NCBI RefSeq assembly: GCF_036507355.1
Contig: NZ_AP027877.1
From: Escherichia coli
GTDB taxonomy: Bacteria; Pseudomonadota; Gammaproteobacteria; Enterobacterales; Enterobacteriaceae
Reading direction: 5' to 3' (one strand)
DNA length: 64,000 nucleotides
The stretch's first letter is position 1. Each line of letters begins with the position of its first letter. The notes under the pieces were generated by a model. The model worked only from the letters and a program-made list of their open reading frames with translations. It searched no databases and was not told where the DNA came from. The translations under genes and the position numbers were made by a program. Below, piece by piece: positions 11,999-41,031 of the stretch.

Positions 11999-12008
11999 GA
12001 AGGGGCAA

Positions 12009-13202: not shown

Positions 13203-13206
13203 AGGA

Positions 13207-14910: not shown

Positions 14911-15216
14911 TTAACTTTCCTTATTTTTTAATTTGTCATAATTGCAACAGATTGGCATTATTCTGTTTTCATTATCTAGCGTTATTTGTTTGATGCAAAA
15001 AAGAATGTCTACGGCAAGTATAAATTGTGTAAAAGAGGGCGTGATTATCGTTGATTTATTTTTCCGCTCTATTTTTGTCCATAGTTCTTCTATGGATACC
15101 GGTCCATCAATTAACGAACGGATGTATCCTGCAATCGCAATTAGGGAGTTACTAAACCTAACATGCTTATGTGGCAGAAGCATTGCTTGGATGTTCATAA
15201 GCATCACATGTCTCAA
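14911..15216 (-). CDS. small hypothetical protein coupled to the ATPase
   Basis: 101-aa ORF whose stop (14911-14913) is immediately followed by the ATPase ATG (14908-14910), suggesting translational coupling. Confidence 0.5.
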   Translation of the reverse strand: MRHVMLMNIQAMLLPHKHVRFSNSLIAIAGYIRSLIDGPVSIEELWTKIERKNKSTIITPSFTQFILAVDILFCIKQITLDNENRIMPICCNYDKLKNKES

Positions 15217-15390
15217 AATATTTAGCTAAAATTAACTCTGCAGCAAATCGATAACTCGCGACCGCACTTGTGGGAACTTGCGGGGGAAGGAGTTTATCTA
15301 TCATCCAAGTATATCTTAAATCTGCATAATTGTGGTTATCTTCAGTTATCGCCAATTTACTTTTTGCATAAGTATCTCTAACTTCTTGAG

Positions 15391-16173
15391 CTATAGTTTG
15401 TTCAAGACCACAAGACCATTATCAACAGAATCTAAAAATTCATTTATCAAATATAGTTGATAGCTAAAAGATTCCAGCCTGCTTTTTATTGGTTTTGTAA
15501 TACCATTTATTTTTATTTTATCTTCGAAGTCCGGGGCTGTTTCACTTAAAAAATTCATGGGTGAAGAAGATTTTTGTGCTAAAAAAGTCAATACTTCACC
15601 AACAGCTCGAGTATCTGTAAAGTCTAAATTAACCTCAGGAATGAAACCTACAATATCTTGCTTTTCACCCTCGGATAATGACATAAACTTTTGAAGGAGC
15701 TCCATCCCACCCATTGCACCTGCGTGATTAAGACTTTTACTGATTGCAAGTGTATTTAATGAAAGTCCAACAGGTGCTGGAATACCCTTGAAATAATCAT
15801 TCATTACAAAAGTATATTTTGATACTTTCCCCCATTTGGCGACTAATTTATCAAAGTCGCCAATCGATTTATTAACAGCTTCTAGCTCTTTGGTTTGATT
15901 TGAAGGTTTAGGTCCATAAACTTGGAAGTAATGAGCCTCATGAGCAATCCACCCATCATTCCCGCCATCTCCCCAGTTTCCCCAAGGGGAAACAGCTTGA
16001 AAGCCAGGAGTCGCGTATTGCATAACCTTCGAAAAAAGCGCCTGAAAACTGTCTCCCATACATTCATGTACTTTTAACCGAAAGAACTGTCTGTAGAGGT
16101 AATCTTGCTGTGTCGAACTCATTTTCCTCTCATCCATGATGAACACTTTTGATGATAATATCCTCTCATTCAT
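15391..16173 (-). CDS. hypothetical protein (260 aa), first gene of the ATPase operon, candidate effector
   Basis: ORF with WGNWGDGGNDGWIAHEAHYF segment; no confident family assignment. Confidence 0.5.
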   Translation of the reverse strand: MNERILSSKVFIMDERKMSSTQQDYLYRQFFRLKVHECMGDSFQALFSKVMQYATPGFQAVSPWGNWGDGGNDGWIAHEAHYFQVYGPKPSNQTKELEAVNKSIGDFDKLVAKWGKVSKYTFVMNDYFKGIPAPVGLSLNTLAISKSLNHAGAMGGMELLQKFMSLSEGEKQDIVGFIPEVNLDFTDTRAVGEVLTFLAQKSSSPMNFLSETAPDFEDKIKINGITKPIKSRLESFSYQLYLINEFLDSVDNGLVVLNKL

Positions 16174-16332
16174 TGTTGTAAACCTATGATTAGCAAAATT
16201 GGAGATGCTTTCACTTTAGAGTTGGTATCTAAAGGTTATAAATTATCAAAACAGGTTGTATAGATATCAAATTGAATACGATTTGACATATATGTTAATC
16301 TGATTAGTATCAGAGAAAAACAGGAGTCCTTA

Positions 16333-16683
16333 ATGTCGCTTATCCCCCTACAACTCTTCAAAAACCTCTCCGATGAAACCCGTTTGGGCATCGTGTTGCT
16401 GCTTAGAGAGATGGGAGAGCTGTGCGTGTGCGACCTTTGCACTGCGCTAGAACAGTCGCAGCCCAAGATCTCCCGTCATCTGGCAATGCTCCGGGAAAGT
16501 GGTCTATTGCTGGATCGTAAACAGGGCAAGTGGGTTCACTACCGCTTATCCCCGCATATTCCTTCCTGGGCCGCTCAGGTGATTGAGCAGGCCTGGTTAA
16601 GCCAACAGGACGATGTGCAGGCCATCGCCCGTAAGCTGGCATCAGCAAACTGCTCTGGTAGCGGTAAGGCTGTTTGTATCTAA
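16333..16683 (+). CDS. arsR: arsenical resistance operon repressor ArsR
   Basis: 116-aa ArsR/SmtB-family protein with metal-binding ELCVCDLC and HTH. Confidence 0.9.
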   Translation: MSLIPLQLFKNLSDETRLGIVLLLREMGELCVCDLCTALEQSQPKISRHLAMLRESGLLLDRKQGKWVHYRLSPHIPSWAAQVIEQAWLSQQDDVQAIARKLASANCSGSGKAVCI

Positions 16684-16730
16684 AAAATTTGCCTGAACAT
16701 ATATGATTTTTCGAATGCGAGGTGTTCAGA

Positions 16731-17093
16731 ATGAAAAAGTTAACGGTGTTTGACCCGGCAATGTGCTGCAGTACCGGCGTATGTGGCTCAGATGTCGATC
16801 AGGTTCTGGTTGATTTTTCTGCTGATGTGCAGTGGCTGAAAGGACGTGGCGTACAGGTTGAACGTTACAACCTGGCGCAGCAGCCCATGAGCTTTGTTCA
16901 AAATGAGAAAGCGAAAGCATTCCTCGAAGCATCTGGAGCAGAAGGGCTTCCGTTACTGCTGTTGGACGGTGAAACGGTGATGGCAGGGCGATACCCAAAA
17001 CGCGCTGAGCTGGCTCGCTGGTTCGGTATACCGCTGGAGAAGGTAGGTTTAGCTCCCACCAGCTGCTGTGGTGGTAATACTTCCTGTTGCTGA
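16731..17093 (+). CDS. arsD: arsenical metallochaperone ArsD
   Basis: ATG at 16731 with GAGGTG SD; MKKLTVFDPAMCCSTGVCG with conserved Cys12/13/18. Confidence 0.9.
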   Translation: MKKLTVFDPAMCCSTGVCGSDVDQVLVDFSADVQWLKGRGVQVERYNLAQQPMSFVQNEKAKAFLEASGAEGLPLLLLDGETVMAGRYPKRAELARWFGIPLEKVGLAPTSCCGGNTSCC

Positions 17094-17110
17094 GTATGTC
17101 AGGAGGACAT

Positions 17111-18862
17111 ATGAAATTCTTACAGAATATCCCGCCTTACCTGTTTTTTACCGGTAAGGGAGGTGTAGGAAAAACTTCTATTTCCTGCGCGACGGCAATC
17201 CGCCTTGCTGAACAGGGTAAGCGGGTTTTGCTGGTCAGTACCGATCCGGCCTCCAATGTCGGCCAGGTATTCGATCAGGCTATCGGTAACACCATTCGCC
17301 CTGTGGCAGCAGTTCCTGAACTTTCCGCTCTGGAAATCGACCCGCAGGAAGCCGCCAAACAATATCGTTCCAGAATCGTTGCTCCTATCAAAGATCTTTT
17401 GCCTGATGACGTTGTTAACAGTATCAGCGAGCAGCTTTCAGGAGCCTGTACCACTGAGATTGCGGCGTTTGATGAGTTCACCGGCTTATTGACAGACGCT
17501 TCCCTGCTGACCCGCTTCGATCACATCATTTTTGATACAGCGCCGACGGGCCACACGATTCGCCTTCTCCAGCTTCCCGGTGCCTGGAGTAACTTCATTG
17601 AGAGTAACCCGGATGGTGCTTCCTGTCTTGGCCCAATGGCCGGACTGGAAAAGCAGCGTGAGCAGTATGCTCATGCGGTAGAGGCGTTATCCGATCCTGA
17701 ACGTACCCGCCTGGTTCTGGTTGCAAGACTGCAAAAATCCACGCTGCAGGAAGTCGCCCGCACCCATGAAGAACTCGCCGCAATTGGCCTGAAAAACCAG
17801 TACCTGGTGATTAATGGTGTGCTGCCTAAAGCCGAAGCTGAACATGACGCCCTGGCCGCTGCGATATGGCAACGTGAACAGGAGGCACTGGCAAATCTTC
17901 CTGCCGGTTTATCCGGGTTGCCGACAGATACCCTATTACTACAGCCAGTCAATATGGTTGGTGTTTCAGCATTGAAGGGACTGCTGGATACCCGTTCTGA
18001 GGCATTACCGCTCCCGGTAACGAACATCCAGTACACGCCTGAAAACATATCGCTCTCTGGCCTGGTCAATGATATCGCCCGCAGTGAACACGGCCTGATT
18101 ATGCTGATGGGCAAAGGTGGCGTGGGTAAAACCACGATGGCTGCTGCCATCGCCGTAAGGCTGGCGGATATGGGATTTGATGTCCATCTCACCACCTCAG
18201 ATCCCGCTGCACATCTCAGTACCACGCTGAACGGTAGCCTTAATAACCTGCAGGTCAGCAGGATTAATCCACACGAAGAAACCGAACGCTATCGCCAGCA
18301 TGTTCTTGAGACGAAGGGTAAAGATCTGGACGAAGCAGGGAAACGGCTACTGGAAGAGGATTTGCGCTCTCCCTGTACTGAAGAAATTGCCGTGTTTCAG
18401 GCCTTTTCCAGGGTGATTCGTGAAGCGGGTAAACGGTTTGTTGTCATAGATACCGCCCCTACCGGACACACGCTGTTGCTGCTGGATGCGACCGGGGCTT
18501 ACCACCGAGAGATTGCCAAAAAAATGGGGAGTAAAGGTCATTTTACTACCCCAATGATGCAGCTTCAGGATCCGGATAGAACCAAAGTTCTGCTTGTTAC
18601 GCTTCCTGAAACCACACCGGTTCTGGAAGTGGCAAACCTGCAGGCTGACCTTGAAAGAGCGGGGATTCATCCGTGGGGCTGGATTATCAATAACAGCCTT
18701 TCCATTGCGGATACGCGTTCTCCGTTGCTTTGCCAGCGCGCCCGGCAGGAACGGCCTCAGATTGAGGCTGTTAAGAATCAGCATGCTGAGCGTATAGCGC
18801 TTGTTCCGGTGCTGGCGTCAGAGCCCGCCGGTATTAAAAAGCTCAGAGAGTTGATGAGTTAA
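17111..18862 (+). CDS. arsA: arsenite-transporting ATPase ArsA
   Basis: ATG at 17111 after AGGAGG; two nucleotide-binding halves each with GKGGVGKT; about 583 aa. Confidence 0.92.
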
Positions 18863-18909
18863 TTTTTTGGCATATACAGGGCGGCAAAGTCGCCCTGTCA
18901 GGAGGTTTT

Positions 18910-20199
18910 ATGTTACTGGCAGGCGCTATTTTTGTCCTGACCATTGTTTTGGTTATCTGGCAACCAAAGGGATTAGGGATCGGCTGGAGTGCAATGCTGG
19001 GCGCGGGACTGGCTCTGATATCAGGCGTTGTGCATGTGGGCGATATTCCGGTGGTGTGGAATATCGTCTGGAACGCGACGGCGACCTTTATTGCCGTAAT
19101 TATTATCAGCCTGCTGCTTGATGAGTCCGGTTTTTTCGAATGGGCAGCGCTGCACGTTTCCCGCTGGGGTAACGGTCGTGGACGTTTGCTCTTTACGTAT
19201 ATCGTTCTGCTCGGTGCGGCGGTGGCGGCACTGTTTGCCAACGATGGTGCGGCACTTATTCTGACGCCGATAGTCATCGCCATGCTGCTGGCATTAGGGT
19301 TCAGCAAAGGCACCACGCTGGCATTCGTCATGGCTGCCGGTTTTATTGCCGATACGGCCAGCCTGCCGCTTATCGTGTCGAACCTGGTGAATATAGTCTC
19401 GGCGGACTTCTTTGGACTGGGCTTCACTGAGTATGCGTCGGTAATGGTGCCGGTGGATATTGCCGCTATTATCGCCACGCTGGTGATGCTGCATCTGTTC
19501 TTCCGCAAAGATATTCCACCGACTTACGACCTGGCTCTCCTGAAAGCACCGGCAAAGGCGATTAAAGATCTGGCAACCTTCAGAACCGGCTGGATAGTTT
19601 TAATTCTTCTGCTGGTTGGGTTCTTTGTCCTCGAGCCGCTCGGTATTCCCGTTAGCGCGATTGCGGCTGTTGGAGCTGTGATCCTGTTTGCTGTAGCTAA
19701 ACGAGGCCATGCCATTAACACCGGCAAAGTGCTGCGCGGTGCGCCATGGCAGATCGTCATCTTCTCATTGGGGATGTACCTGGTGGTCTACGGTCTGCGC
19801 AACGCCGGGCTAACCGAATACCTTTCAGGTGTGCTGAACGTACTGGCGTATAAAGGACTCTGGGCCGCAACGCTGGGTACTGGTTTCCTGACGGCTTTCC
19901 TCTCTTCCATCATGAACAACATGCCTACCGTGCTGGTTGGCGCTCTCTCGATCGATGGAAGCACCGCATCCGGCGTTATTAAAGAGGCGATGATCTACGC
20001 CAACGTGATTGGCTGCGATCTGGGGCCGAAAATTACACCTATTGGTAGCCTGGCAACGCTGCTCTGGCTGCATGTACTTTCACAGAAGAATATGACCATC
20101 ACCTGGGGATACTATTTCCGCACCGGGATCGTCATGACTCTGCCTGTGCTGTTTGTAACGCTGGCCGCGCTGGCGCTACGTCTCTCTTTCACTTTGTAA
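18910..20199 (+). CDS. arsB: arsenite efflux pump ArsB
   Basis: 429-aa polytopic membrane protein, ArsB family. Confidence 0.92.
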
Positions 20200-20211
20200 T
20201 GAGATACTGAT

Positions 20212-20637
20212 ATGAGCAACATCACCATTTATCACAACCCGGCCTGCGGCACGTCGCGTAATACGCTGGAGATGATCCGCAACAGTGGTACTGAACCGAC
20301 CGTAATTCTTTACCTTGAGACTCCACCGTCTCGCGATGAGCTGGTCAAACTCATTGCAGATATGGGCATTTCAGTCCGGGCTTTGCTGCGCAAAAACGTC
20401 GAGCCTTATGAAGAACTGGGGCTTGCAGAAGATAAGTTTACTGACGATCAGTTAATCGGCTATATGCTGCAGCATCCGATCCTGATTAACCGCCCGATTG
20501 TGGTGACACCGTTGGGAACGCGCCTGTGCCGTCCTTCCGAAGTGGTACTGGATATTCTTCCGGATGCGCAAAAAGGCGCATTTGCAAAGGAAGACGGCGA
20601 GAAAGTCGTTGATGAAACAGGTAAACGATTGAAATAA
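20212..20637 (+). CDS. arsC: arsenate reductase (glutaredoxin-coupled) ArsC
   Basis: 141-aa ORF MSNITIYHNPACGTSRNTLEMIR with catalytic Cys12. Confidence 0.92.
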   Translation: MSNITIYHNPACGTSRNTLEMIRNSGTEPTVILYLETPPSRDELVKLIADMGISVRALLRKNVEPYEELGLAEDKFTDDQLIGYMLQHPILINRPIVVTPLGTRLCRPSEVVLDILPDAQKGAFAKEDGEKVVDETGKRLK

Positions 20638-20643
20638 ATATAA

Positions 20644-20661
20644 AGGGGGCTGATGCCCCCT
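20644..20661. terminator. hairpin between convergent arsC and acetyltransferase genes
   Basis: AGGGGGC-TGAT-GCCCCCT stem-loop. Confidence 0.5.
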
Positions 20662-20671
20662 TATTCCTGCC

Positions 20672-21208
20672 TCAGAGCATACGATCTGAATCTTCTGGCA
20701 GAGTACTATTCCCTTCACCAAGTTTCATTTGCAGCAAAACCGTGTCAAGCCAGCGGCCATGCTTGAAACCAATGTCCTTTAATGTACCTATTTCAGTAAA
20801 TCCTGCGCGGATATGAAGCGCTACAGAAGCGACGTTAGCGCTGTCACCCACAACAGCAATCATCTGGCGATAGCCTTCGGACTCGGCCCATTTTAATGCA
20901 TGATCGAGCAGTGCTTTTCCGACGCCCTGTCGCTGATAAGCCGAATCAATATATATCGAATTTTCGACCGTATACCGATAGGCATGGCGTTCGCGGTAAC
21001 GGGAAATATAACAGTAGCCGATGACCGTATCGCCATGCAGAGCGACATACCATGGGAATCCTCGAGACTGAATGCTCCTCAGTCGGTTAAGCATTTCCTG
21101 CGTATCCGGAGGTTCGGTTTCGAAGCTACCTGTACCATGCAGAACATGGTGAGCATAGATATTGCGTATCGCGGTAATGTGCTGTTCTTCAGCATTAATA
21201 ATGTGCAT
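20672..21208 (-). CDS. GNAT N-acetyltransferase, phosphinothricin/arsinothricin acetyltransferase-like (ArsN-like)
   Basis: 178-aa ORF with GNAT acetyl-CoA motif QRQGVGKALL; PAT/Bar-like; located in an ars cluster, where ArsN1-type enzymes occur. Confidence 0.6.
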   Translation of the reverse strand: MHIINAEEQHITAIRNIYAHHVLHGTGSFETEPPDTQEMLNRLRSIQSRGFPWYVALHGDTVIGYCYISRYRERHAYRYTVENSIYIDSAYQRQGVGKALLDHALKWAESEGYRQMIAVVGDSANVASVALHIRAGFTEIGTLKDIGFKHGRWLDTVLLQMKLGEGNSTLPEDSDRML

Positions 21209-21332
21209 CGTGTTACTCCAGTAATGGTGTTTTACAAACTACCGGAATTCGCGACAGCAGGTTAAGTACTTAAACTTATAACCTGTATAAGCAAAAGTTT
21301 GGCTGCAGTAAATGGGGCCGTAGCCCCATCTA

Positions 21333-22034
21333 TTAGCCTGCCATTTTTGCCAGCAGAGCCGCACCCACTGGTTCTTCGTTCTGCAGTGGCGTTAATGCAA
21401 TACGCTTTGCAAACTGCTCTGCAACGTCATTTATCAGCGGCAGTTCGCGACTGGCTCGGGTTACCAGGAACGGTGAGGACGGTTTCGCAGCAGCCAGACT
21501 GCTATTGATTACCCATGCCCATGGTTCAATTTCAGCCCGACGCAAATCCTGTTGCAGGTTTGCCGCTTCCAGCACCGGTGTCGTTTCGGCAAGCGTCACG
21601 ATAATCACCTTCGTCTTCTCCGGGTCATCGGCCAGAGACTGCTGGGGACGCCGGTTAAGGTCGGATTCTTCAATCAACCACCGCTCATCTTCAGGTAATG
21701 CCTGCAATGTTTCAGGCAGGCAAATATCCAGCGTTGAGATTGCATCAGTGGATGGATCAGTTAATGGGGCATCATCTTCCAGATCAACGAATTCCCTGGT
21801 GGTGCGGTACTCATCAATCAGCAGATTCCTCGCCGCCCGATACAGCCAGGCTCGCGGATTCTCCATTTCGCAGAAACTGTCTGAATGAGCGCGGGCACGC
21901 AGGAATAGCTCTTGTAGAAGGTCTGCTGCTTTTTCGCTATCACCTGTCTTCTATGTCAGAAAGCGAGAGAGTTCGGCTTCATGTTGCTGCCAGAACACGC
22001 TCATGCAGTTGTTGAATGCCGTTACATCACTCAT
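21333..22034 (-). pseudogene. degenerate ECF sigma factor-like gene with in-frame amber stop, fused to a 3' fragment of arsA
   Basis: Minus-strand frame from ATG 22034 reads MSDVTAFNNCMSVFWQQHEAELSRFLT-stop (TAG = plus 21951-21953), then ...ENPRAWLYRAARNLLIDEYR (ECF region 2-like), ending in KVIIVTLAETTPVLEAANLQQDLRRAEIEPWAWVINSSL, which parallels the ArsA C-terminus. Confidence 0.6.
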
Positions 22035-22042
22035 ACCAGCCC

Positions 22043-22586
22043 TCAAATTTTGCTCTGATTAACCCGCCGTGAAAGTTCTTCTGCAGATTCTTTTCGTTCG
22101 CTGTAGCGATCAACGAGATAGGCTGAGTTACCTCGGGTCAGCAGAGTAAATTTCACCAGTTCTTCCATCACATCCACGATTCGGTCGTAATAAGACGACG
22201 GTTTCATTCGTCCATCTTCATCAAATTCCTGCCAGGCTTTTGCCACAGAGGACTGATTCGGGATGGTGATCATCCGCATCCAGCGGCCAAGAATTCGCAT
22301 CTGGTTTACGGCATTGAAAGACTGAGAGCCACCGCAGACCTGCATAACGGCCAGTGTCTTACCCTGCGAAGGGCGAACAGCGCCTTCTGATAACGGTATC
22401 CAATCAATCTGGGCTTTCATGATGCCGGTCATCGCACCATGGCGTTCAGGGGAACACCACACCATCCCTTCGGACCAACGAACCAGCTCGCGCAGTTCCA
22501 TGACTTTAGGATGTGAGTCAGGCGCATCATCAGGAAGAGGCAAGCCTGAGGGATTGAAGATCCGAACCTCTTCGCCCATGGCTGCA
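22043..22586 (-). pseudogene. arsH: arsH (NADPH-dependent FMN reductase), 5'-truncated by IS insertion
   Basis: ArsH-like sequence from [17 protein letters not shown] onward; the first ~42 codons of the track ORF (22587-22714) lie inside the IS element. Confidence 0.7.
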
Positions 22587-22604
22587 TGAATCGCCACGGA
22601 TAAT

Positions 22605-23417
22605 CTAGACACTTCCGAGCCGTTGATAATACTGGTTTTCATATTCTGTCGGTGACATCTGATCGCTGGAACCATGCCGACGCTTACTGTTATAAAACAT
22701 TTCGATGTAATCAAAAATATCGCTGCGGGCTTCTTCCCGCGTTCCGTAGATCTTTTTCTTTATCCGTTCGCGTTTCAACAACTGGAAAAAGCTTTCTGCA
22801 ACCGCATTATCATGGCAGTTACCGCGACGGCTCATGCTGCCCTCCAGGCCGTGTGATTTCAGGAACGACTGCCACTCATGGCTTGTGTACTGACTGCCCT
22901 GATCCGAATGAACCAGCACCTGTTTTTGGGGATTACGGCGCCATACAGCCATCAGCAGTGCGTTCAGGACAATGTCCTTTGTCATCCGGGATTGCATGGA
23001 CCAGCCGATAATTTTGCGTGAGAACAGATCAACAACCACGGCAAGATACAGCCAGCCTTCGTGGGTCCTGATGTAGGTTATGTCCGTTACCCAACGCTTA
23101 TCCGGAGCATCCGGATTGAACTGTCGCTGGAGCCTGTTGGGCGACACGATACTGGCCTCGCCTTTACGTGCCCGCGGGCTCCGGTATCCGACCTGAGCCT
23201 TTATCCCGACACGTTTCATCAGTCGCCAGACTCTGTTCACTCCGCACTGTTGCCCGCTGTCCCGCAGATCCAGATGGATTTTGCGATAACCATAGACGCA
23301 TCCCGATTCCAGCCAGAACTGTTTAATCTGCCCTGTCAGCCTCAGGTCTGCCTGATGGCGTTGTGAATGCGGCTGCTGAAGCCAGGCGTAAAAACCACTG
23401 GGATGAACATCCAGCAC
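22605..23417 (-). CDS. IS3-family transposase OrfB (DDE integrase domain)
   Basis: DDE catalytic region (WVTDITY...[10 protein letters not shown]...[11 protein letters not shown]); the true frame probably extends upstream to overlap orfA for -1 frameshift fusion. Confidence 0.85.
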
Positions 23418-23473
23418 CCGACAGAGCAGGCGAACAGGCCAGCAACAGGTGTTGTCACGGATAAAGGCGTACC

Positions 23474-23758
23474 TCAGTCGGACAGCTTTGCGAAGTACGC
23501 CGCGGCTTTTTTTAATATGTCCCGTTCGTCGGTAACCCGCTTCAGCTCTTTCTGGAGACGGCGGATCTCGGCCTGAGCATCTGACTGTTCTTTATTAGCG
23601 GAAGAATCCGGACCGTACTTCTTTATCCAGGCGTAAAGGCTGTGGGTGGTGATATCGAGACGTGTTGCAACGCTGGCAACAGAATAACCGCGATCAACAA
23701 CCTGTTTGACTGCTTCAATTTTAAACTCTTCGGGATAACGCTTACCGCTCATGGGCAC
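23474..23758 (-). CDS. IS3-family transposase OrfA (HTH)
   Basis: 94-aa ORF with HTH and leucine-zipper-like C-terminus (RRLQKELKRVTDERDILKKAAAYFA). Confidence 0.85.
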   Translation of the reverse strand: MPMSGKRYPEEFKIEAVKQVVDRGYSVASVATRLDITTHSLYAWIKKYGPDSSANKEQSDAQAEIRRLQKELKRVTDERDILKKAAAYFAKLSD

Positions 23759-23812
23759 CTCTCTTTAAGCCATCTTAAATGACTCTGAGGTGTCTGTTAA
23801 ACCCGTGGCGAT

Positions 23813-24790
23813 TCACTCTAATGCTTTTTGAGCAGCAAGTTCAAGTTCACTTTTTCCATGAAGTGCCAAAGACATATGGCATTCCGCTAGAAGGCAATAA
23901 CATTCTGTTTTTAGCGTCTGTATATCACTTTTATTTTGTAATCCATCAAATATAGTCATGGCCCTGTAAATGCTTTCAGGGGTGAACTCGTAAAGTTCTT
24001 TCTTTCCGGCTAACATTTCATCTGATAAATAATGATTCTTATATCCTTGGTCCTGCTTAGCTAATCTTACAGATCGTTCTGGTTTATGTACCGTTTGAAG
24101 GATATTATCTATAATAAATTGTGATGTATTATGTAGTTCATCAACAGGGAGATGATTACTGGCGATGAGGAAAAGGTTTTTAGCGTCGATCAACTCAATG
24201 TATAAAGTGTTCACTGCATTATTCTGGTTTATTCTTCCTGTAACGAAATAATCTGGCTTGAATCTGCTCAAGAATGAATTTTGAGATATGTGGTCATTAC
24301 AAAAATTTGTCGCAGCCATCGGATAGGTATAGAGACCATCGATTTTTTTATTTGAAATGATTTGTACTAATTCCTGATTAAGTATTAATGGATCCAGTGT
24401 ATTCAATGAAGTGGTGAAAGGGAATATAGCTATGGAATAGTCTGAAGTATTATCTTCATTAATTTTAGTTTTGAAAACCTGCCCGCTGAAACGATAACCT
24501 TTCCGGTAGATTGTTTCTATGCAGCGATCATAGCCAATTTTTTCAAAAATGCAGCGCAAAGAATAGATACATCTTGTCAGGGACTCGTCACTAACAATAA
24601 TATTTTTCCATACTGATTCGATGATCATATCTTTCAGTACAACATGACCAGCGGATTCAAGTAATACTATTAATACACCTAACTCTTTCGGTGGAATATA
24701 AACTTGCTCATTTCCTTGAGTAAGAATTCCATCTTCCGTGAGCGTTAATCCCTCAAGAAAATGATATGAGAATTTATTTTCTAAGTCCAT
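23813..24790 (-). pseudogene. ygeH: ygeH-like HilA/ToxR-type regulator (ETT2), 3'-truncated by the IS3-family element
   Basis: 325 aa with N-terminal winged-helix region; the reading frame stops on the TGA that is the first triplet of the IS terminus; K-12 YgeH is about 458 aa (recall). Confidence 0.65.
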
Positions 24791-25123
24791 TAGTTAACCT
24801 CTATGAAAAAATTGGTTTCTTGCATCCTGCATAAGCAATAGAAATTATGGCTATTCATATTTATATGTCATTAACGCTACAGGAGTTTACATTCGACATA
24901 TCTATGGTTGTGTTCACTAATTTATCTTAGGAATTCAGTGATGTAATCTGAAATAGCCTTATTCAATTTTGATAAAGTAAAATGCTCTCTAAAGCATTGA
25001 AAAATAATGATTTATTGTATGCTCTTAACTGTTTTAAGATGCTGATTTAAGAAAAGATAAGAGGTGCTGGTTATAGTGGTTAATGCACTATAACCAGCAA
25101 TTTTAACCAAATGATTGTAATGC

Positions 25124-25615
25124 TTAGTTATTATCTTCTGAATTATCGGTTAAGAGTTCGACATATGCCTGCGCTTTACTCTTAACACTATCATCCTCAC
25201 AATTGTTAATAATATGAAAGAAACATTGCATTGCGTTATCGATATTTTTAGCCCCAATTTGACATTGACCCATACGATAAATAACTGAATAGTCATCATA
25301 TGGCGAGTAATTATAACTTAGCTTGTAAAGGTCATATGCTTGTTGATATTTCTTTTTTGACTGACATACTGATGCAAAACCTTTTAGATATTCATGATTT
25401 TCGAACGCATAAATGCACAATAATTTATAATAAATTTCTGCCTCCGTTATATTACCCTTTTCATGGTAGTCGAATGCATATGCATATATTCTATCAAGGA
25501 TATCAGGAGTCAAACCATGTAGTAATGCCAGATTTTCTCCTTTCGATAATGCGTGTTTTAGTTGATTTGCCCATTCATCACTATTATTGAATATTTCAAT
25601 TGTTTCTGTGTCCAT
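25124..25615 (-). CDS. ygeG: TPR-containing type III secretion chaperone-like protein YgeG
   Basis: 163-aa acidic TPR protein, SicA/class II chaperone-like; ETT2 position. Confidence 0.7.
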   Translation of the reverse strand: MDTETIEIFNNSDEWANQLKHALSKGENLALLHGLTPDILDRIYAYAFDYHEKGNITEAEIYYKLLCIYAFENHEYLKGFASVCQSKKKYQQAYDLYKLSYNYSPYDDYSVIYRMGQCQIGAKNIDNAMQCFFHIINNCEDDSVKSKAQAYVELLTDNSEDNN

Positions 25616-25861
25616 AATATTCCTCTGTGATGTGTCTCGTGATGCTAAATTATTATTGATTGACTCATTAATATTTCTACATTTATCTTTTTTAAATTAT
25701 GAGTTTTAAGCTTGCATTGCTTATGAGTATATTTCTTCATTATTAGTAAAATTACTGTCCACTACAAACTAATTACATTATTAGTTATTTTGATAATATT
25801 CACCTTATTAGTAATCTTAATTACGACATTCCATAAATGCCTTAATGTGCATGACCATGAT

Positions 25862-26266
25862 TCATATTATCAATTTCCATTTTTCGATCAAAATTAAAAA
25901 GGGGATTTTTGCGAAGGGGCGAATGTCGTTTGTTTTTTTTTCTTTATTATGTCTGGTGATGAGGGGGGATAGAACGTCGGTGCATATAGTAGAGAATTTA
26001 TCCAGGTCTAAATTATTCTCTATTTTGGTCAGTTTTATGAGTTCATTTGTAGCCATACTCATTAAATCATCTGTTATCGGAAATTTATATATGCTCATAG
26101 CAGATAATATTGCTTGCTGAATTATTTCTTCAGAAAAATCCGCTATCTTTATTGACAAATCATGTATTTGATATTTTCCTCCAAGAGATTCTTGTTCAAT
26201 ATAATTTAAACCAGACCTCATAGTAATTTTAACTGGATTAACGAATTTTTCTTCATTTTTCTTCAT
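25862..26266 (-). CDS. ETT2-associated hypothetical protein (ygeF-like)
   Basis: 134-aa AT-rich ORF in the ygeF position relative to ygeG; no motif support. Confidence 0.35.
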   Translation of the reverse strand: MKKNEEKFVNPVKITMRSGLNYIEQESLGGKYQIHDLSIKIADFSEEIIQQAILSAMSIYKFPITDDLMSMATNELIKLTKIENNLDLDKFSTICTDVLSPLITRHNKEKKTNDIRPFAKIPFLILIEKWKLII

Positions 26267-26759
26267 TTTTCTTATTTTTGTTCTCCTGATCAGGAACTAA
26301 TGGTTGCAGTGGTAGGCTATTATTAATATTTCGTGGCTTCATTTTACATTTCTCTCATTTGATTAGAGCAAAATCCGAACTCGCAGCTTCTGATAATGTC
26401 AAATATCACCTTTTCTCATACTTTATTCTATCAAAAATCGCTCATTTTTACTTTTTTTACCATAATGTTACTTTGTAGCATCGGCAATTTACATAACTTA
26501 CACGTTGTTTTTTATATCCTGAAAAAACAGATAGATAGTGTGCGCACTCGAAATGATATTGGTAACATAAATAGCTTTATTCGTGATAAACATCTCAAAA
26601 GATTTCCTTTATTATATTCGAAATTCATTTGATCAAGGTTATCACCTTATGGAGACGTTACGTAGAATGACTATATTTGTTATCGGCACATTAGGGGTAT
26701 TAATTTTAGTATTGATGGAAGGTGATTATTGAACAGTAACATCGAGTCACGGTAAAAAT

Positions 26760-27197
26760 GTGAGGTATATAATGGATATTGAGTTTTCGCAGATTCATGA
26801 AATGGTCTATATGCATGATATTGTAAATTCGGACTCGAAAAAGAAACCAAGGATTCCGTTAAAAAAATTCCTTAATGCTGAGAAGGTTCTCACGCAAACA
26901 ACATCATGGGCATTAAATTCAAGATATGTGAATGTTAATTCTGTTAATAATGCCAACGTAAAGAGTAAAGTTAAAAACAGTTATATCTCACGATCTGTCA
27001 ATGATGAGTTTAGTTTAACAGATGATGAAATCAATTCTTTTAAAGAAACGTTAGTCCTTTCCTCTATTGATTCACTGAGTAAACTGGTTCTTAATAATCC
27101 TCTTTCTGTATTGTTTACTTCGACTGTACGAAGGAATAATAATCGAGCTAAGATGAATGTAGAGTTCGACTCATGGATTTGCACCAGATGTTGTTGA
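26760..27197 (+). CDS. yqeK: hypothetical protein YqeK-like
   Basis: 145-aa ORF; size, orientation and position match K-12 yqeK. Confidence 0.45.
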
Positions 27198-27345
27198 TAC
27201 ATGATATTTTACATTGCAAGGGGATGTCTGAAATGAAAGATGTTGATCAAAACTTTGATGCTTTAGACTGCCATATACTGCAAGCATATTTAATTTTATT
27301 GTTTTATGATTAACGAGGTTCCATCTTTTTGTTATCTATTTTAGT

Positions 27346-27840
27346 TTACCTTGCACAATGCATTATTGCTCTGTTACCAATACTCAAAATAAAAGCATGC
27401 TTACCTTGCTTTAGTATATTATAGCTTACACTTTTTTCTGGAAAGACATAAAAATCAGGAATAAGTTCTGCAAGTCTATCATCATCGACTTGATCCATAA
27501 TCTCAAACTTATTAACTTTCTTTGATGTTAAATGGGCTGTGTCATAGTTTTCAACCCATGTGTATTCAATATTTCGCCGTATTGATTTACTTTCTCTGTT
27601 ACCTTGTTGCCAGGTTCCACTCAACGCAACAGTTCCTGTTTTATTTTTTTGGTTATACATAAAGTCGATAGTAAGATTTGCTCGCCCCTGGTCATTAAAA
27701 ATTACCCAATTTGCAGTGCATGTCTCATTATATATCATTTTTTCTGCAGTGTAAGAATAGACAGTGAAGAGAATAAACCCACTGATAAAAACTAAAATAA
27801 ATAATAAGTTTTTTTTATAATCAATCACGATTAACCTCAC
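27346..27840 (-). CDS. yqeJ: hypothetical membrane-anchored protein YqeJ
   Basis: 164-aa ORF with N-terminal TM helix; overlaps the end of yqeI, suggesting an operon. Confidence 0.55.
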   Translation of the reverse strand: MRLIVIDYKKNLLFILVFISGFILFTVYSYTAEKMIYNETCTANWVIFNDQGRANLTIDFMYNQKNKTGTVALSGTWQQGNRESKSIRRNIEYTWVENYDTAHLTSKKVNKFEIMDQVDDDRLAELIPDFYVFPEKSVSYNILKQGKHAFILSIGNRAIMHCAR

Positions 27841-28630
27841 GGTAAGACAGGGTTAAACAGCCTGCCACTTCATGTTGGTTATAGTTTTTATTGCATGCCA
27901 TAACAATCATCCCCGGTGAGGATTTTGCAAGAGGGAAGTATAACCACGGATATTTTTTACAGTTAATCCCCGAATCCAATATCCGTGTTTTATATTTATC
28001 GAACTCTTTCAACCCATCAATTGTATCTTCTGTTACATTAAAATGGCAGCCATTAATTTCCGCAACAATCTTGTAATCCTTGAAAAATGGCTTCGGTTGA
28101 TTATTATTCCATAGCCAATATGCAAAATATGCGCCTATGACAAATGCGCTCAACATAATTAGATGACTTTTTATATGTTTGAGGATTTTGTTATTGAAAT
28201 TCTTTGCGCCACCAATGCTCTCTTTGTATCCCGCATTAACTTTTATGGCCGGTGGGGTATTGTGTGTATGTGCGTCTGTTGACGAGTTTATTACATGATT
28301 TTGTATGTTAATGTCATTATGGATCTTGAATCCTCTTCTCGGCACGGTTGCAATAAGTGAGTGGGTAGTATCACCAACAGCGCGAAATCCGCGTCTGATA
28401 ATGGATATGTTCTGATATAACGTGTTAGTTGGCACACGCATACCTTCTTCTTCCCAGACTCTGGTGAAAAAATCTTGTTGTGCAACCACATCAGGAAAAG
28501 CTTCAAGTAGAAGGGATAAACAACGACTGGCTGGCGTTGTCAGAACGACGTTAAGATCGGCGTTATGTACCGATATTAATTTTCGGTGCTCAGGCCAGAA
28601 CTCGATATTATCGTTAATAATCCAGTACAT
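27821..28630 (-). CDS. yqeI: ToxR-like winged-helix transcriptional regulator YqeI
   Basis: 269 aa; N-terminal OmpR/ToxR-type DNA-binding region followed by a TM segment (LIMLSAFVIGAYFAYWLW). Confidence 0.65.
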   Translation of the reverse strand: MYWIINDNIEFWPEHRKLISVHNADLNVVLTTPASRCLSLLLEAFPDVVAQQDFFTRVWEEEGMRVPTNTLYQNISIIRRGFRAVGDTTHSLIATVPRRGFKIHNDINIQNHVINSSTDAHTHNTPPAIKVNAGYKESIGGAKNFNNKILKHIKSHLIMLSAFVIGAYFAYWLWNNNQPKPFFKDYKIVAEINGCHFNVTEDTIDGLKEFDKYKTRILDSGINCKKYPWLYFPLAKSSPGMIVMACNKNYNQHEVAGCLTLSYREVNRD

Positions 28631-28963
28631 ACGTCAATAAACACTAAATCAATCGAAATGGAAATCACATAGTTTGCTAAGTATATTGGTATTTACGGCA
28701 TAAATATATATTAATTTTATATTTATCATGATGATTGAAATGAGGCTTTAATGGCGCAACGTAAAACTTTATATAAATTAACATGGTTAACATTTATGCC
28801 ACTATTGTTGATAAATTCATATTTCGTAATGCTTCTGAATTTTTCGTGTGATGGTTTTAAATACTATGTTGTTTACTCTTGGGGTTACTGCTTATTTATA
28901 AAATACGGGCATTCCAATAGATGCCCGTATAAGCAGAGTATGATTCTGGCAGATCGTTGAGTA

Positions 28964-29656
28964 TTAATGTTGGACCGAATGTGAACGAATAAATAACTCG
29001 TTTATTTTACCACCCATTCTCTTTTCGATTCGTTGCTTGTACGCGTAGATGCTACGGATATCCATATCCAGAACTTCAGTAATCTGATATGGGTTATAAC
29101 CAGAAACCATATACCCCATTATGGTGAATTCCATCTGAGTTAATGTGTTACCTCTGGTAAATGATAAATAACGACCAATAAATAGTTGTCTGATCTTTTC
29201 ATTGGCAACATCAAGACCATCATCATTATATATGACAGCAGATATTGCAGAGTTGTGCTTTCGCCAGTAGTTAGCTAACGATTGCATATTGCGGTCGCTG
29301 ACTAAAACAATCCCCATGTCAGTACTTGCAAGATAGTCAATCCAGTCTTTTTCAAGGAATAGACGTAAAAAACTTACTGAAAAATCGACAAAAATATATC
29401 CGCTTAATCTCGCATTGTGGTTTTTTGTTAAGATACCTTCCACCACACCACGATTAAAATATGAACTTTCTTCGGGCCACATACAAAAACACGAGTTTGC
29501 GCAATACTGAAAACGCGGTGACTCTTCTGGCATTATTTGGCAATGCATTGAGCAACTATTGCATGTAAGACTTTTATAACGACTACAAAGCCCCATGTTA
29601 AGAACCTCCCTATCCGTATATAATTGCATAATTTCATTGGTTATTGATGATGTCAA
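28964..29656 (-). CDS. yqeH: LuxR-family (GerE-type HTH) regulator YqeH
   Basis: 230 aa with C-terminal HTH (LTQMEFTIMGYMVSGYNPYQITEVLDMDIRSIYAYKQRI). Confidence 0.6.
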   Translation of the reverse strand: MTSSITNEIMQLYTDREVLNMGLCSRYKSLTCNSCSMHCQIMPEESPRFQYCANSCFCMWPEESSYFNRGVVEGILTKNHNARLSGYIFVDFSVSFLRLFLEKDWIDYLASTDMGIVLVSDRNMQSLANYWRKHNSAISAVIYNDDGLDVANEKIRQLFIGRYLSFTRGNTLTQMEFTIMGYMVSGYNPYQITEVLDMDIRSIYAYKQRIEKRMGGKINELFIRSHSVQH

Positions 29657-30055
29657 TACACCATGATTTTGTAATGTTGCTGGGAAAAATTGCGATTAAT
29701 CTGTATTTGCTATAATTCTGATTAAGACATTTAAAAATGCATTTCTCGTTATTAAATATGATTATGTTTCACTGATTTAATCTTGCATGGTTGAGAGTGG
29801 TCCAGATAACTATCTCATGGTATGAGAATATCTATATCGCAAATTGTTTTTGAATGACCAGAAGATATCTTGCGAATCTAAGTTATGCATCTTAAATAGT
29901 CTTATTTAAGATGTTCAGATCTCTTTGTGTGTTTAACTAACTGATAATTCTAGGATATGATGAGAGAAGTGATAGGGCGGAATAATAACAAATGAACATT
30001 ATGAAAAATGGAATGGTTCAAAATTGTAGTAATTTTGAACCATTCACAATGGATA

Positions 30056-31285
30056 TTAGCTAAAGAACATTACCGATACGCACAGAATACCCACGATCAG
30101 CGTAATCAGATTTCCGATGGAACGCCAGGGTTTAAGCGCCGGGATGAGATACGTTGACAGCGTAGGCATGATGAAAAGTATCATGGCAATGAGTGGGCCG
30201 CTGATCGCATAAATCATCGAAATCGCGTTCGGGTTAATGCAACAAACAATGAAGGTGATCAGCGATACCAACATAATTGATAGTGCGCGGTTAAATGCAC
30301 GACTTTTCTTTACACCAACCTGCTGTAATGTTGTTTTGACGACCTCTGTGGCACCTTCAATAACGCCAAAGTACGTACCCAGGAATGATTTCGACATGGC
30401 AACTACTGCGACAATAATCCCGGAAATTGACAACCATGCTGGGGCGTTCGGCAGCATAGAAAGCGCCGATAAAATGGTGACCCCTTCTTCTTTAGCCGCT
30501 TCAATATACGAAGGTGGAATAGAAAGCAGGCAGCTAAAGACAAAGAACAGTACACTTATGCAGATGATGAGATAAGCGACTTTCATAATTTTTTTGCATT
30601 TATCCATAGCGTGTTCGCCATATTTTTCACGTCTGTCTATGGCAAACGTAGAAATAATGGGCGTATGGCTAAAGGCGAAAACCATCACGGGAATCGATAT
30701 CCATATCTGGTGAAGGGTATTCTGATTGAACTCTACCTGGGTTGTTAATAGATCAGGTTGCCAACTACCGACAAGGTAAATGGAAAGAAATAAGAAATAG
30801 GCAATCAATGGGAATACCAAAAATCCCATTACCCGAATAGTGGCATGACGTCCCATCAGAAAAATGAGATTCAGAATTAATACAACACCCAGACTCACCA
30901 ACATACGGATGCGAAGATCAATAACCATATGCTTTGCCAGCTGTTCCGTAAGTGAGTTGGTAATTGCCACTGCATATATCAACACGACGACAAAAAAGGC
31001 GATGAAGTACAGCGTGGTAATCAGATTACCTATCTTCTTGCCATAGTAGTGTGTTACTGCGCCCGTTATCCCTTCACCTGCTGATGTTTTCGATGAGAGG
31101 ATGAACTGACATAAGGCTTTATGTGGCCAGTATGTTAAAGGCCAGGCGACCAGAGCAGTAATAAACAGGACCACAGCCCCTGCCGAACCTAACTGAATAG
31201 GAAGGAAGAGCGTGCCTGCACCAACGGCTGTGCCGTAGAGCGCGAAACTCCACAGAGTTTCTTCTTTTGACCAAATATTAGACAT
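30056..31285 (-). CDS. yqeG: HAAAP-family amino acid (serine-type) transporter YqeG
   Basis: 409-aa polytopic membrane protein resembling SdaC/TdcC. Confidence 0.85.
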   Translation of the reverse strand: MSNIWSKEETLWSFALYGTAVGAGTLFLPIQLGSAGAVVLFITALVAWPLTYWPHKALCQFILSSKTSAGEGITGAVTHYYGKKIGNLITTLYFIAFFVVVLIYAVAITNSLTEQLAKHMVIDLRIRMLVSLGVVLILNLIFLMGRHATIRVMGFLVFPLIAYFLFLSIYLVGSWQPDLLTTQVEFNQNTLHQIWISIPVMVFAFSHTPIISTFAIDRREKYGEHAMDKCKKIMKVAYLIICISVLFFVFSCLLSIPPSYIEAAKEEGVTILSALSMLPNAPAWLSISGIIVAVVAMSKSFLGTYFGVIEGATEVVKTTLQQVGVKKSRAFNRALSIMLVSLITFIVCCINPNAISMIYAISGPLIAMILFIMPTLSTYLIPALKPWRSIGNLITLIVGILCVSVMFFS

Positions 31286-31536: not shown

Positions 31537-32721
31537 GTGATGAAAGACGTTGTGATTGTCGGGGCGTTACGGACACCTATCGGCTGCTTTCGTGGTGCGT
31601 TAGCGGGTCATTCCGCCATGGAACTTGGTAGTCTGGTCGTGAAAGCGTTAATAGAACGTACCGGCGTGCCTGCATATGCGGTGGATGAAGTGATTCTTGG
31701 CCAGGTGTTGACTGCAGGGGCAGGGCAGAATCCGGCAAGGCAATCGGCTATTAAAGGTGGCCTTCCTAATAGCGTTTCTGCAATCACGATTAATGACGTT
31801 TGCGGTTCCGGGCTTAAAGCACTGCATCTGGCTACTCAGGCGATACAGTGTGGCGAGGCTGATATTGTCATCGCCGGTGGCCAGGAAAACATGAGCCGCG
31901 CACCACATGTTCTGACTGATAGCCGCACCGGTGCACAGCTTGGCAATAGCCAGTTGGTTGACAGTCTTGTGCATGATGGGTTGTGGGATGCCTTCAATGA
32001 TTATCATATTGGTGTCACCGCCGAAAATCTGGCTCGCGAATATGGCATCAGCCGTCAGTTGCAGGATGCTTACGCACTTAGCTCGCAACAAAAAGCGCGA
32101 GCGGCGATTGACGCCGGACGATTTAAAGATGAGATCGTCCCGGTAATGACCCAAAGTAATGGTCAGACGTTGGTTATTGATACCGATGAACAGCCACGCA
32201 CTGACGCCAGTGCAGAAGGCTTAGCCCGTTTAAATCCTTCATTTGATAGTCTCGGTTCTGTGACAGCGGGTAATGCATCATCCATAAACGATGGCGCAGC
32301 TGCGGTAATGATGATGAGCGAAGCCAAAGCACGAGCGTTGAATTTACCCGTGCTGGCCCGCATCCGCGCATTTGCCAGCGTTGGTGTAGATCCAGCATTG
32401 ATGGGAATTGCGCCGGTGTATGCGACCCGCCGTTGCCTGGAGCGTGTGGGCTGGCAGTTGGCTGATGTCGATCTTATCGAGGCTAATGAAGCGTTTGCTG
32501 CACAGGCGCTTTCGGTTGGCAAGATGCTTGAATGGGATGAGCGTCGGGTCAATGTCAATGGTGGCGCGATCGCACTCGGTCACCCGATAGGCGCTTCCGG
32601 TTGCCGAATCCTGGTTTCTCTGGTTCATGAAATGGTGAAACGTAATGCCCGCAAAGGACTGGCAATGCTTTGTATCGGCGGGGGCCAGGGCGTAGCATTG
32701 ACCATTGAACGTGACGAGTAG
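31537..32721 (+). CDS. yqeF: acetyl-CoA C-acetyltransferase (thiolase) YqeF
   Basis: Thiolase motifs (active-site Cys in NDVCGSGLKAL; C-terminal GHPIGASGCRIL, CIGGGQGVA). Confidence 0.9.
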   Translation: MMKDVVIVGALRTPIGCFRGALAGHSAMELGSLVVKALIERTGVPAYAVDEVILGQVLTAGAGQNPARQSAIKGGLPNSVSAITINDVCGSGLKALHLATQAIQCGEADIVIAGGQENMSRAPHVLTDSRTGAQLGNSQLVDSLVHDGLWDAFNDYHIGVTAENLAREYGISRQLQDAYALSSQQKARAAIDAGRFKDEIVPVMTQSNGQTLVIDTDEQPRTDASAEGLARLNPSFDSLGSVTAGNASSINDGAAAVMMMSEAKARALNLPVLARIRAFASVGVDPALMGIAPVYATRRCLERVGWQLADVDLIEANEAFAAQALSVGKMLEWDERRVNVNGGAIALGHPIGASGCRILVSLVHEMVKRNARKGLAMLCIGGGQGVALTIERDE

Positions 32722-33007: not shown

Positions 33008-33843
33008 GTGGACGTAAGACAGAGCATCCACAGTGCGCACGCAAAAACACTGGATACCCAAGGGCTGCGCAATGAATTTTTGGTTGAAAAGGTATTTGTC
33101 GCCGATGAGTACACCATGGTTTACAGCCACATTGACCGAATTATTGTTGGCGGCATTATGCCGGTAACTAAAACGGTTTCCGTTGGCGGGGAAGTTGGTA
33201 AACAACTCGGCGTAAGCTATTTCCTTGAACGTCGCGAGTTAGGTGTTATCAATATTGGCGGTGCCGGTACGATTACTGTCGATGGTCATGCTATGAAATC
33301 GGTCACCGCGACGCCCTGTATGTTGGTAAAGGTGCAAAAGAAGTTGTCTTTGCCAGTATTGATACCGCCACTCCGGCAAAGTTTTATTACAATTGCGCAC
33401 CTGCGCATACGACGTATCCCACCAAAAAAGTCACACCGGACGAAGTATCTCCAGTCACGTTAGGCGATAACCTCACCAGTAACCGTCGCACAATTAACAA
33501 ATATTTTGTCCCGGATGTGCTGGAAACCTGCCAATTGAGTATGGGGCTGACGGAGCTGGCTCCAGGTAACTTGTGGAACACCATGCCGTGTCACACTCAC
33601 GAGCGCCGGATGGAAGTTTATTTCTATTTCAATATGGATGATGACGCCTGCGTTTTCCACATGATGGGGCAGCCGCAAGAAACGCGTCATATTGTAATGC
33701 ATAACGAGCAGGCGGTGATCTCCCCGAGCTGGTCGATCCATTCCGGCGTCGGAACCAAAGCTTATACCTTTATCTGGGGCATGGTCGGTGAAAACCAGGT
33801 CTTTGATGATATGGACCATGTGGCCGTTAAAGATTTGCGCTAG
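33008..33843 (+). pseudogene. kduI: kduI (5-dehydro-4-deoxy-D-glucuronate isomerase) with an apparent single-base frameshift
   Basis: Two ORFs in different frames (33008-33463 and 33517-33843) together span a kduI-sized locus; the second frame is open back to 33292 and reads [24 protein letters not shown]...; frames meet at about 33288-33290. Confidence 0.75.
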
Positions 33844-40746: not shown

Positions 40747-40828
40747 CCCAGAGGTATTGATAGGTGAAGTCAACTTCGGGTTGAGCACATGAATTACACC
40801 AGCCTGCGCAGATGCGCAGGTTTTTTTT
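40747..40828 (+). ncRNA. omrB: small regulatory RNA OmrB
   Basis: CCCAGAGGTATTGATAGGTGAAGTCAACTTCGGGTTGAGC... ending in the CCTGCGCAGATGCGCAGG-T9 terminator; galR-aas intergenic location. Confidence 0.85.
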
Positions 40829-40943: not shown

Positions 40944-41031
40944 CCCAGAGGTATTGATTGGTGAGATTATTCGGTACGCTCTTCGTACCCTGTCTCTTGC
41001 ACCAACCTGCGCGGATGCGCAGGTTTTTTTT
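40944..41031 (+). ncRNA. omrA: small regulatory RNA OmrA
   Basis: CCCAGAGGTATTGATTGGTGAGATTATTCGGTACGCTCTTCGTACC... with CCTGCGCGGATGCGCAGG-T8 terminator; tandem with omrB and sharing the 5' seed. Confidence 0.85.

Follow-up and report, generated by a model that had tools for sequence, protein, structure and literature searches.

What remains of a secretion island after its secretion genes have gone, how were they removed, and may the remainder still act? This question is raised by a segment of Escherichia coli DNA (positions 23813-31285) that lies in a stretch of 64,000 nucleotides (contig NZ_AP027877.1 of assembly GCF_036507355.1), which was analysed at full length and is called the window here. 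ETT2 (short for type III secretion system 2 of E. coli) is a horizontally acquired, AT-rich island at the tRNA gene glyU and encodes the second type III secretion system (T3SS) of E. coli, which is similar to the one in pathogenicity island 1 of Salmonella (SPI-1). Its reference forms are those of O157:H7 Sakai (ECs3703-3737) and of enteroaggregative E. coli 042. We consider it very probable that this segment represents the yqeG-proximal arm of that pathogenicity island, left by a deletion that an insertion sequence (IS) mediated.

Along the window the genes run recJ-prfB-lysS, then glyU, then yqeG-yqeF-kduID-araE and onward. The gene glyU, encoding tRNA-Gly(CCC) (6339-6412, plus strand; ARAGORN; Rfam tRNA, 71.6 bits), anchors ETT2 in the chromosome and is where other islands attach, and the remnant occupies the ETT2 position between it and yqeG/yqeF. 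ETT2 has been described as adjoining glyU, with a GC content of 36.9% (50.8% in the chromosome), and as spanning yqeH to ECs3737 (PMC3977695). Here 23816-29885 has a GC content of 33.3% and the right-hand core one of 51.7%, which bears out the marked AT richness claimed in an earlier note on this DNA. In a megablast search of 5,426 complete E. coli genomes, the sample behind all genome counts given here, 23813-31285 was matched in 5,414 at 95-99.5% identity. The best match was strain 48 (NZ_CP166879), and the features annotated among the matches listed were yqeG, yqeH, yqeI, ygeG and ygeH. A gene map was built from the listing of open reading frames (ORFs), Pfam, NCBIfam and tblastn with strain 48 proteins. 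The remnant proteins share 98-100% identity with annotated E. coli orthologues or strain 48 proteins (tblastn), and the genes are orthologous to ECs3703-3709 (yqeH, yqeI, yqeJ, yqeK, ygeF, ygeG and ygeH). Rfam models applied to the window gave no hit within 23813-31285, and elsewhere only tRNA and OmrA/OmrB.

The first gene of the remnant is a truncated ygeH (ygeH', 23813-24790, minus strand), which keeps residues 1-325 of 458 (NF008870, tblastn). It is followed by an intact ygeG (25124-25615, minus strand; 163 aa; PF07720, SicA-like; 98.2% identical to strain 48) and by ygeF (about 25844-26342, minus strand). The latter was aligned with the intact 163-aa genes of strain L26 and one further genome and is a pseudogene here, because about codon 24 is followed by a 10-bp tandem duplication and 1 bp is missing near the 3' end; it is likewise a pseudogene in K-12 and strain 48. 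The other four genes are intact: yqeK (26772-27197, plus strand; 141 aa; 100% identical to strain 48 YqeK), yqeJ (27346-27828, minus strand; 160 aa; 100% identical to strain 48), yqeI (27821-28630, minus strand; 269 aa; PF00486; 99.3%) and yqeH (28967-29596, minus strand; 210 aa; NF047921; 99.0%). Beyond the island, the first gene is yqeG (30056-31285, minus strand), an intact gene for a serine/threonine-type permease of 409 aa (TIGR00814, 516 bits), which is retained even where glyU abuts it directly (one such genome was inspected). The intact core gene yqeF (31537-32721, plus strand) encodes an acetyl-CoA acetyltransferase (Thiolase_N and Thiolase_C; 99.2% identical to strain 48). The earlier note had placed ygeG, a truncated ygeH, yqeI and yqeH beside yqeG and yqeF. 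All of them were recovered on the strands and at the places it implied, they align to ETT2 genes, on which its reading hung, and yqeJ, yqeK and the frameshifted ygeF are added to them. Within the remnant, strain 48 and strain L26 each match ygeH(1-325) (23816-24790) at 99.8% identity, whereas for yqeK, yqeJ and yqeI (in 25127-29596) the identity is 99.6-100% to strain 48 and only 97-98.5% to L26. This contrast hints at a recombination mosaic.

The secretion apparatus was searched for with strain 48 proteins across the locus, including 22 encoded from eivF to ygeI (apparatus parts and regulators). These cover sctC/V/N/Q/R/S/T/U, the gatekeeper, prgH/I/J/K-like proteins, orgA/B, etrA, ygeK and pbl. 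None of the 22 matched anywhere in the 64-kb window (tblastn, E<=1e-3), and the matches of strain 48 locus proteins were confined to ygeH (residues 1-325) through yqeF. In this comparison with an ETT2-complete strain, which had been proposed as a check, the regulator and chaperone genes have matches in the window and the apparatus genes have none. The eiv, epa, epr and org genes are absent from the window, and the locus is therefore a remnant, not a secretion system. The space between ygeH and glyU had been said to lack apparatus genes and to hold an IS together with ars and defence islands; this is what we found, in the form of an IS3-family element and two tandem integrase islands (A and B). 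The ORFs of these islands have integrase, ABC-3C, ars, GNAT and transposase domains only (Pfam, PADLOC). A diverged apparatus gene hidden among them was sought with the 22-protein tblastn search and the Pfam and PADLOC scans, and none was found. Secretion from the remnant locus would be impossible.

The border of the remnant is formed by an IS3-family insertion sequence of 1,229 bp (22587-23815, minus strand) with an orfA of 94 aa and an orfB of 270 aa (HTH_Tnp_1 and rve). Members of the IS3 family have two overlapping ORFs (orfA with a helix-turn-helix, orfB with a DDE/rve domain), inverted repeats that begin with TG and a length of 1.2-1.5 kb, and this element fits the description. Its terminal inverted repeats are perfect over 13 nt (TGAATCGCCACGG). 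Together with these repeats, identical copies at other sites in many E. coli (188-1416 of the junction query) define its extent; the copies are annotated as IS3 family and occur in up to 16 places per genome. The left flank is the interior of arsH, where the FMN_red domain begins mid-profile. The right flank is codon 325 of ygeH, and the terminal TGA of the IS serves as the stop codon of ygeH'. No target-site duplication surrounds the element. The flanks differ (GCA in arsH, CTC in ygeH) and come from unrelated genes, so this is not a simple insertion; the arrangement arsH'-IS-ygeH' points to a deletion mediated by the IS, or to two IS copies having recombined. A 1.6-kb query spanning the arsH-IS and IS-ygeH junctions was covered to 80% or more in none of the 5,426 genomes. 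An intermediate with a simple IS insertion in ygeH and a target-site duplication was also looked for, and no genome with a shared junction was found in this sample. Replacement of ETT2 by an integrase was considered and rejected: there are just two copies of the attachment repeat (6390-6412 and 10585-10607), and island B ends in arsH at the IS rather than at such a repeat. The only strain-specific novelty is the breakpoint itself, a previously unsampled junction of arsH' through an IS3-family element to ygeH codon 325.

Such a junction might also arise in assembly, if a repeated IS had been collapsed, arsH and ygeH falsely joined and DNA lost that is really present. The IS is multicopy in many E. 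coli, and the junction occurs in no other genome, as this explanation would have it. However, both ends of the IS are complete, the reading frames enter it cleanly and finished genomes commonly show ETT2 deletions bounded by an IS. In addition, the window has another, independent deletion at a distance of 18 kb, bounded by IS1, which fits an IS-active strain. We regard an artefact as very improbable.

This second IS-mediated deletion is marked by an IS1 (768 bp, 4536-5303) that joins the lysS terminator to the intergenic region of xdhA and actS (ygeR). The 9-bp flanks of IS1 differ (GGGGTTTTT at 4527-4535 and CGCATCAGG at 5304-5312). Since IS1 makes this join, idi, uacT and the whole ygf/xdh purine-catabolism cluster are missing, a segment that by the gene order of K-12 is presumably about 38 kb long. 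Strain SW071610 has an independent, similar deletion, with idi retained, and IS1 occurs within about 1.6 kb of actS in 127 genomes. The actS region may be a hot spot of IS1 insertion.

To return to ETT2, we propose that the 1,229-bp element mediated either an adjacent deletion or recombination between two IS copies. The event would have fused the interior of arsH, in the glyU-integrated arsenic/ABC-3C island (island B), to codon 325 of ygeH. It would have removed the distal part of island B, ygeQ, all apparatus genes still there, the regulators eivF, etrA and ygeK/etrB, as well as pbl, ygeI and the last 133 codons of ygeH, and would have left yqeH, the yqeI/yqeJ cassette, yqeK and an orphan chaperone gene ygeG intact, together with the pseudogenes ygeF and ygeH'. 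The two nearest relatives of the flank, strain 48 (99.5%) and NZ_OZ197100 (99.0%), have a near-complete ETT2, and for this reason the most parsimonious history is the loss of at least about 30 kb in one step.

Some observations weigh against so large a single step. Island B is near-identical to the copy in NZ_OZ197100 while the flanks differ by about 1%, so the island was transferred horizontally, and this strain does not descend directly from NZ_OZ197100. Moreover, in a rare layout, that of strain L26 (three of the 5,426 genomes), the apparatus up to pbl' was already gone, and from such a background the IS event would have cost only about 3.9 kb. The apparatus could accordingly have been gone beforehand in an L26-like ancestor, in which the ars island abuts pbl', and the IS deletion could have removed only about 4 kb, comprising the remainder of island B together with pbl', ygeI and the 3' end of ygeH. 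L26-type genomes carry the same ars island family and no apparatus, and the window aligns to L26 on both sides of the IS (21625-22579, and from 23816). We nevertheless find this history unlikely. Apart from the rarity of the L26 layout, island B is 96-97% identical to L26 against 99.86% to NZ_OZ197100, it has the sigma70'/arsA' internal deletion of NZ_OZ197100, and the flank is nearer to the ETT2-complete strains (99.5% and 99.0%) than to L26 (97.3%).

The locus can be set beside other forms of ETT2. The K-12 remnant has the same locus, gene order and orientation, shares yqeH, yqeI, yqeJ, yqeK, ygeF (a pseudogene in both) and ygeG, is also bounded by an IS and also lacks the inv/spa/prg apparatus; the shared block is 97.3% identical. 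The layout in K-12 is yqeH-ygeH, ygeI, pbl', ygeK', ygeN/ygeO, IS2 and ygeQ. K-12 thus keeps a full-length ygeH, ygeI, a decayed pbl, ygeK, orgA/orgB remnants and ygeQ, whereas the window keeps nothing beyond codon 325 of ygeH. The bounding element in K-12 is an IS2 beside the orgA remnant, while in the window it is another IS3-family element with an ars island on its far side. The near-complete ETT2 of strain 48 is 99.5% identical from yqeG to ygeH(1-325), and the two share the glyU anchoring and the low GC described for ETT2 (PMC3977695). Strain 48 differs in having eivF through ygeI (about 19 kb, 22 genes), of which the window has none. Genomes free of ETT2, in which yqeG follows glyU, likewise have no apparatus genes and retain yqeG and yqeF, but there yqeH through ygeH are gone too, while the window retains them. 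This ETT2-free layout is frequent in E. coli and is said to have been tied classically to phylogroup B2 by Ren et al. in 2004. Finally, likeness to Salmonella SPI-1 is seen in YgeH, which is HilA-like (NF009037, E=3e-60), and in YgeG, which is SicA-like (E=2e-35). Both fall below the equivalog cut-offs and are homologues of HilA and SicA, not the same proteins. Unlike those of SPI-1, the regulators and chaperone of the window have no cognate secretion system in it.

The block from yqeG to ygeH(1-325) is retained to at least 80% in 3,530 of the 5,426 genomes. Most genomes without it keep yqeG alone or yqeG and part of yqeH. The DNA of pbl, ygeI and the ygeH 3' end is retained in about 3,550 genomes (3,551). 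For the DNA from eivF to pbl, some is present in 3,717 genomes, at least 80% in 932 and none in 1,709. By these genome counts, almost all genomes with the regulator block keep DNA past ygeH codon 325. An isoform that keeps the regulators and nothing else would therefore be rare, a rarity inferred from separate genome counts (3,530, 3,551 and 3,717) and not from co-occurrence in each genome. The phenomenon as such is already known. ETT2 decay is textbook matter, and the present locus is one more IS-generated isoform. Mutational attrition of ETT2 has reportedly been on record since 2004, and K-12 is itself an example. In strain 300081 an ETT2 deletion is bounded by IS1, which joins etrA' to yqeJ. 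Reviews describe about 10 or more ETT2 deletion isoforms, and they also treat the K-12 remnant and cases of an IS inserted in ygeH (PMC3977695, PMC11068852).

Can the retained genes still act? The earlier note had called ygeH truncated and HilA-like, yqeI ToxR-like, ygeG a TPR chaperone gene and yqeH LuxR-like; the first three descriptions stood and the fourth stood in part. YgeH' aligns to positions 1-325 of the 458-position YgeH equivalog model NF008870 with 766.8 bits (cut-off 800), so it is not a full-length match, and over residues 1-325 it shares 99.7% identity with strain 48 YgeH (tblastn). It retains an OmpR/ToxR-type winged helix-turn-helix at residues 28-101 (PF00486, 49.4 bits). In full-length YgeH, residues 369-438 match TPR_2/ARM weakly, and this segment is gone here. 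With its DNA-binding domain kept and this weak TPR-like C-terminal segment lost, YgeH(1-325) could still bind DNA. The chaperone assignment of YgeG is based on TPR_3 (PF07720), which matches the 163-aa protein in two stretches with 81.1 bits (cut-off 20.7). The scores are below the equivalog cut-offs for SicA (NF011859, 122.2 against 184) and for LcrH_SycD (TIGR02552, 81.5 against 104.8). By these profiles YgeG is a homologue, not an equivalog, of the SicA/LcrH class II chaperones of T3SS translocators. No cognate translocators or apparatus for it were found within the 64-kb window (tblastn).

YqeI has a winged helix-turn-helix at residues 28-102 (PF00486 Trans_reg_C, 37.9 bits). Its best hydrophobic window of 19 residues is 155-173 (mean Kyte-Doolittle value 1.5), with about 95 residues C-terminal of this segment. 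YqeI is thus predicted to be a ToxR-like membrane-bound regulator that has its winged helix-turn-helix in the cytoplasm, crosses the membrane once and has a periplasmic domain. The start of yqeJ overlaps the stop of yqeI by 8 nt on the same strand, and YqeJ has an N-terminal hydrophobic segment. YqeI and YqeJ have been described as a co-component system of the ToxR/ToxS type with complexed periplasmic domains, in which YqeJ is FidL/VtrC-like with a lipocalin-like fold, and as orthologues of MarT and FidL of SPI-3 (PMC9214523). In the gene overlap and the predicted features of YqeI, the pair matches this ToxR/ToxS-type cassette (VtrA/VtrC superfamily) of PMC9214523. As for YqeH, a weak GerE/LuxR match exists (PF00196, 19.7 bits, E=7e-4) but lies below the Pfam cut-off of 23.5. 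The better match is to the EcpR-like model NF047921 (71 bits, E=1e-19), far under its equivalog cut-off of 300. EcpR-like is a more precise description than LuxR-like for this putative C-terminal helix-turn-helix regulator. YqeK has no Pfam or NCBIfam match.

Pooled ratios of nonsynonymous to synonymous polymorphism (pN/pS) are 0.12-0.29 for ygeH(1-325), ygeG, yqeK, yqeJ, yqeI and yqeH against four strains. Such values would be compatible with function across the species. They come from cross-strain comparisons in which most strains have part of the apparatus, and they are no proof of selection after its loss. It also speaks against a retained role that about one third of E. coli genomes are without the whole block at no obvious cost. 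In avian pathogenic E. coli, yqeI and yqeH deletion mutants lose flagella, motility, adhesion and virulence, and their transcriptomes have been published (PMC7552227, PMC9014576). YqeH and YgeG affect transcription of espE3, and the deletion isoforms and regulator cross-talk have been reviewed (PMC11068852). The cross-talk with other virulence loci that the earlier note envisaged is hence not a new idea: effects of YqeI, YqeH and YgeG outside ETT2 are already published. For this strain we give about even chances that YqeI/YqeJ and YqeH, if expressed, act outside ETT2, on targets such as the flagella, adhesion and biofilm genes reported for the avian pathogen.

A different answer is that the remnant is inert, decaying and silenced by H-NS, and survives since the endpoint of the deletion chanced on ygeH. 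H-NS represses ygeH (PMC4210603), and with a GC content of 33% the AT-rich block is probably silenced by it under laboratory conditions. Two of the seven island genes (ygeF and ygeH') are already pseudogenes, ygeG has no apparatus in the window and the presumed co-regulator EivF is gone. In addition, about 1,700 of the 5,426 genomes lost yqeH onward, many with glyU directly abutting yqeG. On the other hand, yqeH, yqeI, yqeJ, yqeK and ygeG are intact with the low pN/pS given above, and the knock-outs of yqeI and yqeH in the avian pathogen show motility, adhesion and virulence phenotypes. An inert remnant seems to us a real possibility that falls somewhat short of even. More doubtful, and put forward tentatively, is that the yqeH-yqeI/yqeJ-yqeK-ygeG block is a selected, T3SS-independent regulatory module after loss of the apparatus and of EivF, EtrA and YgeK. 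In that case a SPI-3-like sensor of the MarT/FidL type and an EcpR-like regulator may govern motility and adhesion.

The islands that now fill the space between glyU and ygeH have a history of their own. Island A (6413-10607, plus strand; 4.2 kb) encodes a tyrosine integrase of 543 aa (Pfam Phage_integrase) as well as one KilA-N-like and one hypothetical protein, and at its end the last 23 nt of glyU are repeated (10585-10607). This repeat occurs twice (6390-6412 and 10585-10607), with 0 occurrences expected by chance. The island is 89-92% identical to the copy in NZ_OZ197100. About 1 kb of it (8180-9157) is without an ORF above 63 aa and has no Rfam family at the gathering threshold; in the related island of NZ_OZ197100 a DUF4145 gene follows the integrase, and just a 180-bp patch (8427-8605) is alike.

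Island B (10608-22586, plus strand) is cut on its right side by the IS. It has a P4-type integrase of 408 aa, an ABC-3C candidate defence system, arsRDABC and arsH', which is without about 57 N-terminal codons (Pfam, PADLOC), as well as a gene for a HEPN/RES-NTD1 protein, a GNAT gene and a sigma70'/arsA' fusion. The ABC-3C system comprises a DUF2326 ATPase (PADLOC PDC-M68B, E=8e-73), MC6 and a frameshifted effector. This third gene (about 15164-16111, minus strand) has an 8-bp insertion (15403-15410) relative to the 315-aa alleles of NZ_OZ197100 and L26, which frameshifts its last 75 or so codons, and the system is therefore probably inactive in this strain. The 325-aa protein encoded just after the integrase (12154-13131, plus strand) has a HEPN/RES N-terminal domain 1 scoring 24.1 bits against a cut-off of 27.4 and matches no PADLOC model; it may be a further candidate defence or toxin gene. 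A 177-aa ORF (21333-21866, minus strand) fuses a sigma-70-family N-terminus to the C-terminus of a second ArsA. It is an internal deletion of the second ars cluster (arsD2-arsA2), which is intact in strain L26, and is common to the window and NZ_OZ197100.

Island B is collinear with that of NZ_OZ197100 and 99.86% identical up to 22584, inside arsH, with 6 substitutions and 3 indels in 12 kb (10585-22584 against 7084-19072). Since the chromosome flank from yqeG to ygeH differs by about 1% between the two, the near-identity of the islands argues for recent horizontal spread of the ars/ABC-3C island. Both integrase islands stand in tandem at glyU in the order A-B, the reverse of NZ_OZ197100 (B, then A-like), where the copies of the glyU 3' end are at 7084-7106 and 33810-33832. 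The reversed order therefore indicates independent, sequential integrations at one tRNA gene. On the far side of the remnant, the sRNA genes OmrA (40747-40828) and OmrB (40944-41031), both on the plus strand, are at their usual site between galR and aas.

For the biology of this strain, the locus means that it may be labelled as unable to secrete through ETT2, and it has little significance past this annotation. The strain does allow YqeI/YqeJ and YqeH to be studied without the apparatus or EivF, EtrA and YgeK. If the retained block is indeed a T3SS-independent regulatory module, the strain would be a natural apparatus-null background in which its regulon could be defined.

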